Virus record (IMG/VR): IMGVR_UViG_2531839239_000021
Source: a virus
Lineage: Duplodnaviria; Heunggongvirae; Uroviricota; Caudoviricetes
DNA: 4,423 nucleotides
Strand: one strand, 5' to 3'
Shown piece by piece: positions 1-4,056 of this stretch; position 1 is the first letter of the stretch; every line of letters starts with the position of its first letter. The position numbers and the translations under genes were made by a program. The notes under the pieces were generated by a model that saw only the letters and a program-made list of their open reading frames with translations, was not told where the DNA came from and made no database searches.

Positions 1-451
1 CGTTGTCGTAGCTGTCATGCAACACGCTCATGACATCAGACACGGTGACGATAATCACGCTGCGCCCCTTCGCCATCAGCCGGTTACCCATCGCCGCTGC
101 AAGGTGATTTTTCCCGGTGCCGGTTTTACCGCTGAACACAAAATTCGTGCACCCGGTCATCAGTTCGTCAGCTATGGATTTGGCCTGGCTCAGCGCGTAT
201 TTTTGCCCGTCGTTCTGCACCTGATAATTCGCAAACGAGCATTTGCTGTGCAGAGGCTGGATGCCCGAACGATTCAGGATTTTTTCCACCCGCAACTGGT
301 GATTCTGGCGGTTAATCTCCTCGCTGCGTTTTCGTCCTTCAGCAAGTTGCCATTCCCGCCACTCCTCCACCGTCCGGTACGGTGGAACCGACGCCTGTGG
401 TGCAAGTCTGCGAATACGTTCAAGAACCCCGGCTGCCGCAATGTTTTTCAT
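1..451 (-). CDS. DnaC-family replicative helicase loader (phage replication protein, functional analogue of lambda P); N-terminal 150 aa only, 3' end runs off the left edge of the window
   Basis: Minus-strand ATG at 451..449 preceded by AGGGGGTGA (SD-like). Translation MKNIAAAGVLERIRRLAPQ...NFVFSGKTGTGKNHLAAAMGNRLMAKGRSVIIVTVSDVMSVLHDSYDN has a Walker A P-loop GKTGTGKNHLAAA (about nt 110..130) and is collinear with my recollection of E. coli DnaC (FIFSGKPGTGKNHLAAAI...GKSVLIITVADIMSAMKDTF). Not in the ORF track because it has no stop inside the window. The plus-strand ORF 17..886 is its antisense shadow. Confidence 0.85.
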   Translation of the reverse strand, partial: MKNIAAAGVLERIRRLAPQASVPPYRTVEEWREWQLAEGRKRSEEINRQNHQLRVEKILNRSGIQPLHSKCSFANYQVQNDGQKYALSQAKSIADELMTGCTNFVFSGKTGTGKNHLAAAMGNRLMAKGRSVIIVTVSDVMSVLHDSYDN

Positions 452-457
452 GCCACA

Positions 458-1549
458 TCACCCCCTGAATCCCGGCGGAATTTCGGTATCCGGTTCAGAA
501 ATATGATTCACACAACGCTGGTTGTTCGTGCCGCTTACCGGGAGCAACCAGGGGTTTTCAAAATTCCGGTCCGGCCCAAAAAACGTCGTCGCTCGCTGAA
601 CAAATTCCGTTCCCGCTTTCCCGGTCGCCGCCAGGTATCTCGCGTAACGCCTCACACCATCCAGCATGGTCTCTGGTGGCACCCCCTCGCGCAATCTGGC
701 CTTCCAGGCACTGAAAGCGGATTTCTTCGGGTTTGCCCCAGCACGCAACGGGTATTCCCGCCAGACCTGTTCGAACACATCCGGATAATCCACTCGTCCC
801 ACAGACTGCCCGGTGCTTTCCGGGACTACCCGATCGGCTTCCCGCTGAATGGCGGAATCGGCTTCAGGCTGCTGCAGTTGGTGTGATTGCTCCGACCCTG
901 CGGTCATCACCTGCTGCACAGCGCCCGAATCGGCTTCCGGTGTCGTGCCTGCTGGCTGACCAGGATTGACGGTCTGAACATCCCCTGCCTGGTTCGTGGT
1001 GTTTTTTTTGCCATGAACCATAGTGTTTTTGTCCTGTTCCTGTTCTTTCTCCTGCTCCTGTTCCTGTTCTTGGCTTCGAAGCCCCTTAAAAGCCCCTTCG
1101 AAGCCCCTTACCGAATTTCGGCTATTATTCCGCCTCACATCCAGATGGAAATCCGTTTTATATCTGTCGTAAAACACTGACAGAAAAGCGTTTTCAGGTA
1201 ATGATGCATACTCATTCCTGACACCTGCACAACGGTTATCGCCAGGCTTCAACGTTTCCCCAACCTGCCAGGCTGCCATTTCATGGACCCAGACCATCTC
1301 TGCATCATGGTCATAGCTACAAAAACCAGCTTCAACAGCCCTTTTAAGCCCCTTTGAAGCCCCTTCCAGACCAAGCCCGGTTTCATGAGCAAGGTATAAA
1401 ACTGGCAGGTAATACAAACCCAGCATATTTGCGTGAGGGGATGTCATCAGGTAAAAAGCAACAACTTGCGCTTCTGCACCCGCCTTTCTAAGTTCTCTCC
1501 CCGTTTCTCCCAGCCAGAATCGCGGAGAAACTTTTGCGTAATCACGCAT
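458..1549 (-). CDS. Phage replication initiator / replisome organizer (lambda O-like role), about 363 aa; alternative upstream ATG at 1660 would give 400 aa
   Basis: Long minus-strand ORF 458..1660. I prefer ATG 1549 (MRDYAKVSPRFW...) because it is preceded by GATGAGGTAGCC (GAGG, 5-nt spacer), whereas ATG 1660 has no SD. Stop TGA (460..458) lies inside the SD of the downstream DnaC-like gene, implying coupling. It sits immediately upstream of a helicase-loader gene and contains internal DNA repeats like the origin inside lambda O. The C-terminal region (AFSAWKARL...GVRRYARYLAATGKAGTEFVQRATTFFGPDRNF) resembles phage replication-initiator C-terminal domains as I recall them; exact family not verified. 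Confidence 0.8.
   Translation of the reverse strand: MRDYAKVSPRFWLGETGRELRKAGAEAQVVAFYLMTSPHANMLGLYYLPVLYLAHETGLGLEGASKGLKRAVEAGFCSYDHDAEMVWVHEMAAWQVGETLKPGDNRCAGVRNEYASLPENAFLSVFYDRYKTDFHLDVRRNNSRNSVRGFEGAFKGLRSQEQEQEQEKEQEQDKNTMVHGKKNTTNQAGDVQTVNPGQPAGTTPEADSGAVQQVMTAGSEQSHQLQQPEADSAIQREADRVVPESTGQSVGRVDYPDVFEQVWREYPLRAGANPKKSAFSAWKARLREGVPPETMLDGVRRYARYLAATGKAGTEFVQRATTFFGPDRNFENPWLLPVSGTNNQRCVNHISEPDTEIPPGFRG
1033..1068. repeat. Tandem hexamer repeat (CCTGTT-like x6) inside the replication initiator gene, encoding an EQ-rich linker (QEQEQEQEKEQEQ)
   Basis: Plus strand 1033..1068 = CCTGTT CCTGTT CTTTCT CCTGCT CCTGTT CCTGTT. Units are multiples of 3, so the minus-strand reading gives an alternating Glu/Gln low-complexity segment. 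Confidence 0.85.
1076..1110. repeat. Candidate iteron cluster B: three tandem copies of AAGCCCCTT (minus strand AAGGGGCTT), period 11-12 bp
   Basis: Exact AAGCCCCTT at 1078..1086, 1090..1098 and 1101..1109. The 11-12 bp period is not a multiple of 3, so successive copies are read in different frames; conservation is therefore at the DNA level. Confidence 0.6.
1336..1365. repeat. Candidate iteron cluster A: two exact and one degenerate copy of AAGCCCCTT, period 11 bp
   Basis: CAGCCCTTT at 1336..1344 (degenerate), AAGCCCCTT at 1346..1354 and 1357..1365. Same 9-mer as cluster B, about 250 bp away, both inside the replication initiator gene. Confidence 0.6.
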
Positions 1550-1766
1550 GGCTACCTCATCTGGTGCCGAACCTTCCTCCGGATATAATCTGTGGTTCCC
1601 AATCGACAGAACCAGAGGAGGTTCGACATGTATTTTTTGAAAAGCCTTTATCAGGCTCATGTATTAAATGTTGCAGCAACAAACCGCTGGTGTAACAGCC
1701 CCGAAATGCTCCCGGATTACAGAGCCTGGCTGCGCGCCGAAACATACCTTCGTCTCGACATATTGA

Positions 1767-2289: not shown

Positions 2290-2715
2290 TTAATGCACAG
2301 CCAGAGTGTTTCCTGCCGGGCCACCACGATTCATCTGATCGAACAGAACGATCGCTGATGCAACGAAATCATCAATATCTTTCACCAGCCGTTCCTTCGT
2401 CTCTACCAACTCCCGAAAATAAGCGGAACTGTGGCTGCGCATTCGGGCCACCAGCGGAGGCGGCATCGCTTTTTCGATCGCTGGTAACAACGCCTGAATT
2501 TTTTTAACCGCATCAGGAGTGTCTTTCTCCACCCAGCGGAAAATTTTCTGAGTATTGCGAGCCATGGCTTCCGGATGGCTGTCGTCATACAGTTCCGGGA
2601 ACGTCATTCCCAGCTCGAAATACGCTTTGGTAATTTTCGCAGCCGGTACTTTTTCGCCGTCCGGATGCGCCCAGACATTCATCGCCATGCGGATGTGTTC
2701 ATGCTTGATTTTCAT
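2290..2715 (-). CDS. ydaT: YdaT-like protein (Rac-prophage YdaT family; reported as the CII-equivalent of Rac-type switches), 141 aa
   Basis: Minus-strand ORF MKIKHEHIRMAMNVWAHPDGEKV...NTLAVH. The start ATG shares the 4-nt ATGA overlap with the stop of the upstream YdaS-like gene (2715..2712). The N-terminal MKIKHEHI and the position directly after a ydaS-like gene match my recollection of Rac YdaT; family call from memory, not a search. Confidence 0.65.
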   Translation of the reverse strand: MKIKHEHIRMAMNVWAHPDGEKVPAAKITKAYFELGMTFPELYDDSHPEAMARNTQKIFRWVEKDTPDAVKKIQALLPAIEKAMPPPLVARMRSHSSAYFRELVETKERLVKDIDDFVASAIVLFDQMNRGGPAGNTLAVH

Positions 2716-3014
2716 GAATCAACTCCATCAGATAAGCATGCACTACAATCACCTTCAGCATGAACTACATGTGTTTGCCCCAAACGAATGCCGCTCGCAT
2801 ACTCAGGCCAAATAAGCTCCCAATCATGGGGTCGTAGCTCCGCCCTACTTACTTGGCCTTCCGTCGCAGATTCGATCATAAGGGCGCGGGTTGGAGATAT
2901 AGCTGTTCGTCCAGACGCCATTTGCGATAAGTAAGATGGCGATACACCAAGTCTGGCCGCGAATTTCTTAGCATCACCAACCCTTAATGATTTAATAAAC
3001 TCTTTTAATGTCAT
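2712..3014 (-). CDS. ydaS: Cro-like HTH regulator of the YdaS family, 100 aa
   Basis: Minus-strand ATG at 3014 preceded by CGAGGAAGGT (SD). Translation MTLKEFIKSLRVGDAKKFAARLGVSPSYLSQMASGRTAISPTRALMIESATEGQVSRAELRPHDWELIW... aligns with my recollection of E. coli Rac YdaS (LGVSPPSVNQW...AIERATRGEVLCEELRP). Transcribed divergently from the repressor-like gene, as for cro. Confidence 0.8.
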   Translation of the reverse strand: MTLKEFIKSLRVGDAKKFAARLGVSPSYLSQMASGRTAISPTRALMIESATEGQVSRAELRPHDWELIWPEYASGIRLGQTHVVHAEGDCSACLSDGVDS

Positions 3015-3042
3015 ACCTTCCTCGGTTTAGTGTTTTTTTGCG

Positions 3043-3072
3043 AGTTTAGTGTTTAATAAACCATTAAGTCAA
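3043..3072 (-). promoter_or_regulatory. PR-like leftward promoter for the ydaS-like operon, with an embedded 11-bp palindromic operator
   Basis: Minus-strand -35 TTGACT (plus coordinates 3072..3067), 18-nt spacer, -10 TAAACT (3048..3043). The perfect odd palindrome GTTTAATAAAC (3051..3061) lies in the spacer. Predicted transcript start is about 22 nt upstream of ATG 3014. Confidence 0.55.
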
Positions 3073-3076
3073 GTAT

Positions 3077-3105
3077 TTGCTTGTTTAGTGATTACTAAAG
3101 ATAAT
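3077..3105 (+). promoter_or_regulatory. PRM-like rightward promoter for the repressor-antitoxin-toxin operon; predicts a leaderless mRNA
   Basis: -35 TTGCTT (3077..3082), 17-nt spacer, -10 GATAAT (3100..3105). The spacer holds the near-palindrome TTTAGT-GATT-ACTAAA (3084..3099). The -10 ends 6 nt before ATG 3112, and there is no SD upstream of that ATG. Confidence 0.5.
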
Positions 3106-3111
3106 TACCAC

Positions 3112-3483
3112 ATGCAAAAAAAAGAAATTCGCCGTTTACGTCTCAAGGAGTGGTTTAAAGATAAAACTCTGCCACCCAAAGAGAAGAGCTACCTATCTCA
3201 ACTAATGAGTGGGAGAGCCTCGTTTGGAGAAAAGGCTGCCAGAAGAATAGAGCAAACATACGGGATGCCGGAAGGGTATCTGGATGCGGAATACGCAGAA
3301 CAACCGGGGGGTTCTCCACCACATGCAGGGTTAACGTCTAATCAACTGGAATTATTGCAGATTTTTTCAGCCTTCCCTGAGGATGAGCAACGCCAGATAA
3401 TCAGCGAGTTAAAGCAGAAAAAAGAATCAATGGAAGATCTCATAGCGAGATGGATTGCGGCGCAAAAATGCCGCCGCGCCTGA
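3112..3483 (+). CDS. paaR: HTH transcriptional regulator in the CI-repressor position; first gene of a three-component TA operon (PaaR-like), 123 aa; the track's GTG at 3049 is a possible but less likely start
   Basis: ORF MQKKEIRRLRLKEWFKDKTLPPKEKSYLSQLMSGRASFGEKAARRIEQTYGMPEGYLDAEYAE... Divergent from the cro-like gene and followed within 20 nt by the antitoxin and ParE genes. Contains the motif SYLSQLMSGR, which is also present in the YdaS-like protein. The paaR name is my recollection of the E. coli O157:H7 paaR-paaA-parE systems and is not verified. Confidence 0.7.
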   Translation: MQKKEIRRLRLKEWFKDKTLPPKEKSYLSQLMSGRASFGEKAARRIEQTYGMPEGYLDAEYAEQPGGSPPHAGLTSNQLELLQIFSAFPEDEQRQIISELKQKKESMEDLIARWIAAQKCRRA

Positions 3484-3503: not shown

Positions 3504-3695
3504 ATGAATAGAGCCCTTTCACCAATGGTTTCTGAATTTGAAACCATTGAACAAGAAAACAGTTACAACGAATGGCTGCGTGCGAAAGTAGCAACGAGCC
3601 TTGCAGATCCGCGCCCAGCAATTCCCCATGACGAAGTTGAGCGCAGAATGGCAGAACGCTTTGCTAAGATGCGCAAGGAACGGAGCAAGCAGTAA
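3504..3695 (+). CDS. paaA: Small antitoxin of a ParE-type toxin-antitoxin pair (PaaA-like), 63 aa
   Basis: ATG 3504 preceded by GGAGGA (3495..3500). Translation MNRALSPMVSEFETIEQENSYNEWLRAKVATSLADPRPAIPHDEVERRMAERFAKMRKERSKQ. The TAA stop (3693..3695) is 1 nt before the toxin ATG. Size, charge pattern and position immediately upstream of a ParE-family gene fit an antitoxin. The track ORF 3450..3695 includes an unlikely N-terminal extension. Confidence 0.8.
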   Translation: MNRALSPMVSEFETIEQENSYNEWLRAKVATSLADPRPAIPHDEVERRMAERFAKMRKERSKQ

Positions 3696-3696
3696 A

Positions 3697-3975
3697 ATGT
3701 TACCCGTGTTATGGCTTGAAAGCGCAGATACCGACCTAGATGATATAACTAGTTATATTGCTCGTTTCGACATAGATGCGGCTGAACGCTTATGGCAGCG
3801 ATTAAGGGGTTGTGTGCTGCCGTTATCCGAACATCCGTATTTATACCCACCAAGCGACAGAGTACCTGGCTTGCGTGAGATTGTAGCCCACCCTAACTAT
3901 ATAATTCTATACCGCGTAACAACATCAAGCGTTGAAGTAGTAAACGTGATCCACGCAAGACGCCAGTTTCCCTAA
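3697..3975 (+). CDS. parE: ParE/RelE-superfamily toxin (ParE-like), 92 aa
   Basis: ATG 3697. Translation MLPVLWLESADTDLDDITSYIARFDIDAAERLWQRLRGCVLPLSEHPYLYPPSDRVPGLREIVAHPNYIILYRVTTSSVEVVNVIHARRQFP has the ParE/RelE hallmarks (W..A..DL..I..YI, GLREI, YRV, V.NVIHARR). The track ORF 3601..3975 begins at an upstream ATG inside the antitoxin gene and is not the likely start. Confidence 0.88.
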   Translation: MLPVLWLESADTDLDDITSYIARFDIDAAERLWQRLRGCVLPLSEHPYLYPPSDRVPGLREIVAHPNYIILYRVTTSSVEVVNVIHARRQFP

Positions 3976-3993: not shown

Positions 3994-4039
3994 ACATAAC
4001 AACCGCAACGACTTTATCAAAAGCGTTGTGTTTGTTATG
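3994..4039 (+). terminator. Imperfect 16-bp inverted repeat downstream of the toxin gene; candidate weak terminator or protein-binding site
   Basis: CATAACAACCGCAACG (3994..4009) and CGTTGTGTTTGTTATG (4024..4039) are reverse complements apart from two positions (one a G-U wobble in RNA), with a 14-nt loop. The stem is A/T-rich and no clean U-tract follows, so terminator function is uncertain. Confidence 0.3.
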
Positions 4040-4056
4040 TCCCGCGGTTTAGTTTT

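Follow-up and report, generated by a model that had tools for sequence, protein, structure and literature searches.

In phage lambda, the replication origin lies in the middle of the initiator gene O, where iterons are followed by an AT-rich tract (PMC7466680), and the origins of the staphylococcal pathogenicity islands (SaPIs) carry short iterons that are read by a winged helix, with two sets flanking the centre in opposite directions (PMC9371898). Here we examine a 4,423-nt stretch of viral DNA (IMG/VR record IMGVR_UViG_2531839239_000021; hereafter the window, meaning the whole stretch), which is the immunity and replication region of an Escherichia coli lambdoid prophage and is 99.7% identical to prophages of O157:H7 strains. 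Two arrays of a 9-bp word, termed A and B, lie within the gene encoding the predicted replication initiator. These arrays are probably iterons bound by the winged-helix N-terminal domain (N-domain) of the initiator and, together with an adjoining (CAGGAR)n hexamer tract and an inverted repeat, probably make up the replication origin of the prophage.

As in ori-lambda, including the origins of the Shiga toxin (Stx) phages 933W and P27, the proposed origin is located inside the initiator gene at the boundary between the N- and C-terminal domains, with array B and the hexamer tract forming codons 147-175 between the folded N-domain and the C-terminal domain. A further point of likeness is that tandem repeats bound by the initiator precede a tract presumed to unwind (PMC7466680), and another is the gene order cro, cII, initiator, loader. 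Ori-lambda, however, has a single array of 4-6 iterons of ~19 bp with internal dyad symmetry and a clear AT-rich tract, whereas the window has 9-bp cores at an 11-bp period, in arrays of two and three copies ~245 bp apart, and no strong AT-rich block; the arrays in the window thus match neither the iterons nor the A/T tract of the lambda type. The loader is of the DnaC/IstB type, in contrast to lambda P. By analogy, the overall layout of iterons, repeat tract and inverted repeat at a domain junction resembles that of ori-lambda. Ori-lambda also has a palindrome to the right of its AT-rich tract.

The two oppositely oriented iteron sets of the SaPI origin have a counterpart in most members of the initiator family described below, whereas both arrays in the window are in direct orientation. 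SaPI origins differ further in lying downstream of rep, in their 5-6 bp iterons and AT-rich centre, and in having a Rep protein that is a self-loading helicase. A SaPI-type origin was rejected for the window: Pfam and PHROG profile searches found no helicase or ATPase domain in the initiator, the arrays are within the gene, and there is a separate DnaC-like loader.

Two arrays of an 11-bp-phased word lie within the initiator gene

Examination of the window revealed five exact copies of the 9-mer AAGCCCCTT, all on the plus strand, at 1079, 1090, 1101, 1346, and 1357, in agreement with the count given in the initial annotation of this DNA. Dinucleotide-preserving shuffles of the sequence contained a mean of 0.04 exact copies, and none of 200 shuffles reached five. 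Two copies constitute array A and three constitute array B, with the coordinates of these and all other features collected in Table 1. The copies within each array are spaced at exactly 11 bp, so that of the 11-12 bp period described initially the 11 bp held and the 12 bp did not. A sixth, degenerate copy had also been proposed, and its standing is weak. The near-copies beside array A are ACAGCCCTT at 1335, with three mismatches, and CAGCCCTTT at 1336, with two mismatches and a 10-bp offset, and a third array-A match with at most one mismatch was present in only 6 of 82 homologues. This degenerate unit probably does not function as a copy.

On the coding (minus) strand, array A reads gAA GGG GCT tca AAG GGG CTT (E62-L68), with its copies in two frames (EGA and KGL), and array B reads gtA AGG GGC TTc gAA GGG GCT Ttt AAG GGG CTT (V147-L157), with its copies in all three (V-RGF, EGA-F, and KGL). 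In the enterobacterial subgroup that includes the window, array B looks like a duplicate of the array A segment, at 79% over 42 nt.

The word is conserved as DNA among homologues

Homologues were drawn from GenBank phages, from IMG/VR, and from a set of one genome per species. Gamma-, Beta-, and a few Alphaproteobacteria contributed 79 prophage loci to the species set (50-79% identity). After removal of duplicates there were 82 distinct genes at 50-80% amino-acid identity, or 81 without the truncated L149, which gave an artefactual count. The 9-mer, with at most one mismatch, was found at gene positions +184/+195 and +428..+462 in nearly all of the 82 distinct genes. The division into two clusters, considered an oddity at first, is the conserved design of the whole family.

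Variation in array A is limited to the 2-nt spacer and to residue 65, which the spacer encodes. The most frequent codons in this array were GGG for G63 (97%), GCT for A64 (80%), GGG for G67 (84%), and CTT for L68 (88%); at other conserved Gly, Ala, Leu, Pro, Thr, Val, and Arg sites the top codon mostly accounted for 30-60%, and Gly was mostly encoded by GGC. The position of array B is constant across homologues, and what varies is its orientation and copy number. Among 81 genes, the copies were all inverted in 54, mixed in 14, and all direct in about 12, with one to four copies per array, separated by 11 bp in 85 cases and by 12 bp in 12. Conservation at each position of the array B core is 82-99%, with a C/G-rich spacer that varies. 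Where the array is inverted, the encoded peptide changes from EGAxKGL to APSKPL with the DNA word unchanged.

Selection on the 9-mer acts at the DNA level, as had been proposed from the presence of copies in different frames. At this level, the word persists in hundreds of phages. The suggested check in homologues, namely retention of the word at synonymous positions, is borne out by the frozen synonymous sites of array A, and the outcome that would have spoken against it, a constant peptide with a freely varying 9-mer, is the reverse of what array B revealed. The same data bear on the possibility that the repeats are merely a by-product of the repeated peptide EGAxKGL, with constraint acting on the protein only. 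This peptide does occur twice in the protein encoded in the window. However, the copies are read in three frames, the synonymous positions are frozen, and the inverted word gives APSKPL at array B in most homologues, and we regard this explanation as refuted, with virtually no likelihood left to it.

Additional arrays were seen at some loci. Some Acinetobacter members have a third iteron array, which lies 16-38 bp ahead of the initiator start codon (L004, which is Acinetobacter phage R3177, at 2037-2056, and L093, L096, L106-L109, and L127), and L151 has extra arrays 650-900 bp upstream.

Predicted structure of the initiator and placement of the arrays

The initiator, as a whole, yielded zero Pfam matches at E <= 0.01, and on this ground membership in the lambda O family (Phage_rep_O) was rejected; the N-domain had no match in Pfam or NCBIfam. 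The protein does match PHROG 1701 ('DnaD-like helicase loader') significantly and over the full length of the profile (E = 1.3e-148), with residues 38-400 of the long open reading frame (ORF) aligned to profile positions 1-323 of 323. This ORF is open in frame for 37 codons further upstream, to an ATG at 1660 (window 1550-1660), and the start at 1549 is the one indicated by family alignments, PHROG 1701, and RefSeq alike. The sequence ATGCGTGAY at the start is kept as DNA across the family, with R2 encoded by CGT in 73% of sequences.

Residues 1-164 were modeled with AlphaFold2 from 47 sequences, at a mean predicted local distance difference test score (pLDDT) of 83.6. The modeled elements are H25-36, b45-47, H50-57, H60-73, b77-80, and b85-88, with disorder from residue 143 onward (pLDDT below 50). 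This order, H1-b1-H2-H3-b2-b3, is that of a winged helix, and the model found structural matches among solved winged-helix domains. The predicted layout of the protein is thus an N-terminal winged helix (residues ~5-142), a disordered linker, and a C-terminal domain with a DnaT-like tail. Since the topology is canonical, array A can be placed in the codons for the first half of the putative recognition helix, H3. Array B, according to the model, is in the codons for the unstructured inter-domain linker, just before the S(QE)n tract.

A sequence search of the PDB with the initiator matched the DnaT-like tail only. Over its last 21 residues (..VNHISEPDTEIPPGFRG), the initiator matches the very C-terminal end of E. 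coli DnaT (..SEPDxxIPPGFRG; PDB 6aep, 2ru8, and 9zbt), and the tail as a whole occupies the last ~24 codons of the gene (window 458-530). This sequence likeness hints at a partner in helicase loading that is shared with DnaT. Assignment of the initiator as DnaT (primosomal protein I) was rejected, as the match is confined to the last 21-24 residues and the NF002770 score was 17.8 bits versus a cutoff of 201. The tail may be the reason that some records carry the label 'primosomal protein I'.

A hexamer tract and an inverted repeat adjoin array B

The hexamer-repeat tract reported in the initial annotation was recovered by Tandem Repeats Finder (TRF), which identified repeats of period 6 at 1032-1069 and of period 18 at 1024-1063. 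In every gene of family 1, the family of the window's initiator, cgaAGCCAAGAr(CAGGAR)n adjoins array B, with the number of hexamers ranging from 3 to >15, and the S159 codon is AGC in 100% of the sequences having Ser at this position. The tract is a candidate for both an unwinding element and a flexible linker.

Beyond the tract, the window has an inverted repeat that, folded as DNA, has a predicted energy of -7.8 kcal/mol (z = -4.9). A scan of the window for promoters and terminators stayed at chance level except for this hairpin at 990-1020. Hairpins within 60 nt after the tract, with stems of at least 7 pairs and at most one mismatch, were present in 40% of 100 distinct sequences compared to 7% of control windows drawn from the same genes. 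Stems of at least 9 pairs were present in 16% versus 0.3% of control windows, and for perfect stems the Mann-Whitney p was 5e-8, although shared ancestry among the sequences means that such p-values overstate independence. Among the 35 distinct hairpins the sequences are unrelated and the reading frames differ, so that it is the structure, not the sequence, that is under selection.

The sequence conservation at this junction raised a further possibility, that array B and AGCCAAGA(CAGGAR)n provide shared homology at which phages recombine to swap N- and C-terminal modules. The C-terminal domains do switch right after the (QE)n tract, and cgaAGCCAAGArCAGGA is kept as DNA across taxa, S159 always being AGC. 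Array A, however, lies in the middle of the folded N-domain and not at the junction, yet it shows the strongest synonymous constraint. Inversion of array B destroys the homology, yet inversion is the commonest state of this array, and the second initiator family described below has the same 9-mer with quite different linkers. As the explanation of the arrays, a recombination junction is most improbable; recombination could be a secondary role of the hexamer tract.

The word recurs in a second family and is altered in divergent lineages

When IMG/VR was scanned for pairs of exact copies spaced 11 bp apart, 80 loci (L166-L245) were recovered. The family-1 N-domain is encoded at 48 of them, where the pairs occupy the positions expected. 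About 23 others make up family 2, with very divergent ORFs of 210-280 aa that start MAKRFTDTEKW.. and are found on low-GC viral contigs. Family 2 carries the same 9-mer at codon positions other than those of family 1, and its pairs lie at +57 (peptide RGLQGAY), where the N-domain ends (KPLTSPL), or at both. Linkers of low complexity, (KD/MD)n or (SN)n, and C-termini that vary come directly after. A jackhmmer search of 6,922 local ORFs joined the two families, through intermediates, over positions 7-120 of the hidden Markov model (HMM), and sequence comparison thus provisionally makes the family 2 proteins probable distant homologues of those in family 1.

Altered words occur in other lineages. 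The named phage nearest to family 2 is Pseudanabaena phage Pan5 (gp50; L290:2800-2900), in which the variant units ATGGGGCAT, ATCCCCCAT, and ATGGGGGTA recur with an 11-bp period in the same place, before a (KD)n linker; both flanks of these units are altered symmetrically, from AAG..CTT to ATG..CAT. In a divergent family-1 lineage (L153, L162, L164, and L165), helix H3 is changed and the consensus is lost at both arrays, with L165 having GGAAGCCCG twice at 11 bp. The variant iterons, those of L165 and of the ATGGGGCAT type in Pan5, are too few as independent cases for a covariation statistic. The same four betaproteobacterial loci share a palindrome, CTAACAC-TGAC-GTGTTAG, located ~40-70 nt after the (QE)n tract, and a second TGACGTGT is found 30 bp beyond it.

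Throughout, the N-domain and the arrays remain constant while the C-terminal domains and the downstream partner genes differ, and the arrays and the winged-helix N-domain are co-inherited as a module. This association has a bearing on whether the 9-mer might be bound by some other factor, either a host protein or another phage protein, rather than by the N-domain. Binding by the N-domain is deduced, and the word is shared by two initiator branches for which direct profile comparison gave no link. However, the hosts extend from Enterobacterales to Alphaproteobacteria and to low-GC hosts, so that a single host factor is unlikely. The neighboring genes vary among loci, loss of the consensus coincides with the changed helix H3, and the local iterative search does link both branches over the whole domain. 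We consider another binding factor to be quite improbable.

Occurrence of the module and confinement of the word

The distribution of the exact 9-mer on both strands was determined in the complete genomes of Acinetobacter phage R3177 and E. coli phage CharmingMan and in the first 50 of 61 kb of Shigella phage 75/02 Stx. Copies inside the initiator gene or at most 100 bp from it were 5 of 6 in R3177, 1 of 1 in CharmingMan, and 3 of 3 in 75/02 Stx. Across these three phage genomes, the exact word has hardly any site outside the initiator gene. The 5-kb flanks of most of the 79 loci contained no other array.

Of 5,426 complete E. coli genomes, 469 contain the module, most of them O157:H7. It was also found in Stx-converting phages (Shigella 75/02 Stx and phiSTEC1589-Stx1c), in phages and prophages of Acinetobacter baumannii and Klebsiella, and in prophages of many Proteobacteria. 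The hosts include Enterobacterales, Acinetobacter, Burkholderiales, Xanthomonadales, and some Alphaproteobacteria, in addition to low-GC hosts. In a search for an autonomous phage-plasmid with the module, the single small 'plasmid' hit, NZ_CP069825.1, was rejected; it is a linear contig with chromosomal genes and is uninformative on autonomous replication. The literature searched on in-gene origins in lambdoid modules of the DnaC type contained nothing on this initiator family, and the paper on phage JC1 gives the module order only.

Replication origin or regulatory site

A number of observations weigh against the arrays being part of an origin. A strong, conserved A/T-rich element was sought by composition, by the family-wide A/T profile, and by third-position GC content (GC3), and each gave only weak dips. 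The T-rich stretch initially taken for an A/T-rich region did not hold up as such, its T8 being the loop of the inverted repeat, and the lowest 60-bp GC content anywhere in the gene is 0.37-0.40. The family-wide A/T excess is modest in the hexamer tract and reaches its maximum, +0.11 to +0.14, at 40-70 bp upstream of array B, and GC3 dips over codons 118-157, upstream of array B; both the excess and the dip may result from amino-acid composition. No DnaA box was found at up to one mismatch, and the inverted repeat was seen in only ~40% of homologues. Binding of the 9-mer by the initiator N-domain is deduced from their co-occurrence and from the predicted fold. Direct profile-profile comparison of families 1 and 2 was not significant, and the homology of family 2 is provisional because the families were joined by a small local iterative search only. 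Among GenBank phages, no well-studied phage with the N-domain was found, and the searchable literature held no description of the initiator family or of the iteron, nor of the 9-mer in a phage context.

The arrays could, moreover, be sites of autoregulation or copy control as well, or solely. If solely, the initiator would bind them as a transcriptional roadblock or for handcuffing, and the true origin would be elsewhere. Iteron-type initiators commonly autoregulate as well, the sites are inside the initiator's own transcription unit, and a clear A/T-rich unwinding element was not found adjacent to them. Against a purely regulatory role, the exact 9-mer is almost absent elsewhere in the three phage genomes, which would leave a 9-mer-specific initiator without another site of action. 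The flanks of most loci likewise have no other array, and the arrays, repeat tract, and inverted repeat come together at a domain junction, like the elements of the lambda origin. We consider a solely regulatory function unlikely.

We infer a replication function for the array region, and with it a place of melting and a route of helicase recruitment, along the following lines. Initiator monomers would bind each 9-bp core (AAGGGGCTT or its complement) head-to-tail every 11 bp, a spacing that would put them on one face of the helix. The two arrays, ~245 bp apart, would be joined or wrapped through oligomerization of the initiator, and the resulting stress would open the DNA adjoining array B, either at the hexamer tract or at the less G+C-rich stretch just upstream. 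Host DnaB would then be recruited, via the phage DnaC-like loader, by the C-terminal domain and the DnaT-like tail that it carries. Of the two candidates for the melting site, the hexamer tract is purine-rich and the other stretch lies immediately upstream of array B; the spacer between the arrays is a candidate site of wrapping or melting.

Relation to plasmid, DnaA, and other phage systems

Iteron plasmids (RepA of pPS10 and pSC101, pi of R6K, and TrfA of RK2) share with the window direct repeats phased with the helical repeat and winged-helix initiators, and their sites can have a dual role in initiation and control. They differ in having iterons of 17-22 bp with a period of ~22 bp, Rep proteins with two winged-helix domains, DnaA boxes, and AT-rich 13-mers. 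The iteron plasmid type of replicon was rejected for the window, given its 9-bp iterons, single predicted winged-helix domain, and lack of a DnaA box at the mismatch limit used above.

The DnaA box is a 9-bp asymmetric site that is near-constant across very distant lineages and used in either orientation. The 9-mer is like it in being near-unchanged across very distant lineages and occurring in either orientation. DnaA, unlike the initiator, is an AAA+ protein that reads its box with the helix-turn-helix of domain IV, and both the sequence of the box and the protein family are unrelated.

In Bacillus phage SPP1, the initiator G38P binds repeats in its own gene (oriL) and there is a separate helicase loader, and in phage P4 two separated clusters of short repeats, ori and crr, are both needed. 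The proteins, repeat sequences, and hosts of SPP1 and P4 are unrelated to those described here, with homology undetected.

By the tests above, the system is not in the lambda O, plasmid Rep, SaPI Rep, or DnaT family, and by analogy it is functionally like ori-lambda and the SaPI origins. Its unusual features are the short 11-bp-phased cores, the conserved two-array design, and the location of one array in the codons for the putative recognition helix, along with the free inversion of array B and a word near-invariant across very distant phages.

Genes and other features of the window

The minus-strand genes follow the order cro-like, cII/YdaT-like, initiator, and DnaC-like loader. The loader gene is directly downstream of the initiator gene, and in O157:H7 it is 747 nt and annotated as 'ATP-binding protein'.

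Table 1 Features of the window and coordinates of family 2 examples
Feature	Position	Strand	Remarks
DnaC/IstB-like AAA+ helicase-loader gene, 5' part	1..452	minus	Cut by window end; PF01695, PHROG 50
Initiator gene	458..1549	minus	363 aa; PHROG 1701 match; RefSeq start 1549
Inverted repeat	990..1020		12 pairs; T8 (1003-1010) in loop; 7 bp beyond hexamer tract
Hexamer-repeat tract (CAGGAR)n	1027..1075	minus	Purine-rich; encodes S159(QE)n..DK
Array B	1079..1109		Three exact 9-mers (1079, 1090, 1101), 11-bp period; codons 147-157
Inter-array spacer	1110..1345		236 bp; least G+C-rich part of gene ~1120-1240, GC 0.37-0.42
Degenerate third unit adjoining array A	1335..1344		2-3 mismatches
Array A	1346..1365		Two exact 9-mers (1346-1354, 1357-1365), 11-bp period; codons 62-68, EGASKGL
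YdaT/CII-like gene	2290..2715	minus	
YdaS/Cro-like gene	2712..3014	minus	
DicA-like repressor gene	3112..3483	plus	
PaaA2-type antitoxin and ParE toxin pair	3504-3975	plus	Directly downstream of repressor gene
Family 2 examples (other loci)	L209:2261-3010; L183:1959-2765; L172:2-718		

Upstream of the initiator gene, two long ORFs overlap on opposite strands and are claimed by different databases. The plus-strand ORF at 1628-2083 is annotated by RefSeq and matches NCBIfam NF033230 ('ECs1072 family', E = 2e-30), and the minus-strand ORF at 1767-2327 matches PHROG 8304 (E = 6e-120); shadow ORFs probably gave rise to one of these two families. Between the divergent cro-like and repressor genes, GTTTAGTG is present three times, at 3025, 3044, and 3083 (0.10 expected), inside direct repeats of 11-24 nt (window 3025-3093). 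These repeats are likely operator sites. After the PaaA2-ParE pair, at 3994-4040, there is a terminator-like inverted repeat having 22-nt arms, 82% complementary, with a 3-nt gap.

Implications for the phage family

The analysis gives a concrete prediction of the origin and of initiator specificity for an uncharacterized replicon class, whose N-domain is without a Pfam family or a studied member, and a fixed 9-mer would allow such origins to be annotated automatically. It further points to double coding in one stretch of DNA, which would encode a predicted DNA-reading helix and at the same time be, apparently, a site read by that helix.

A broader and tentative suggestion, which we hold to be possible though doubtful, is that AAGGGGCTT is the near-universal box of a very old, phylum-spanning class of phage replicons, conserved in the manner of the DnaA box, and that in the main branch a pair of these boxes resides in the codons of the very helix that reads them. 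If this is true, a change in the site would also change its reader, and protein specificity and DNA site would therefore be locked together. Co-resident prophages having the same N-domain and different C-terminal domains would then share origin specificity and could titrate, exclude, or cross-activate one another, so that prophages with the common box may be subject to replication cross-talk or incompatibility.

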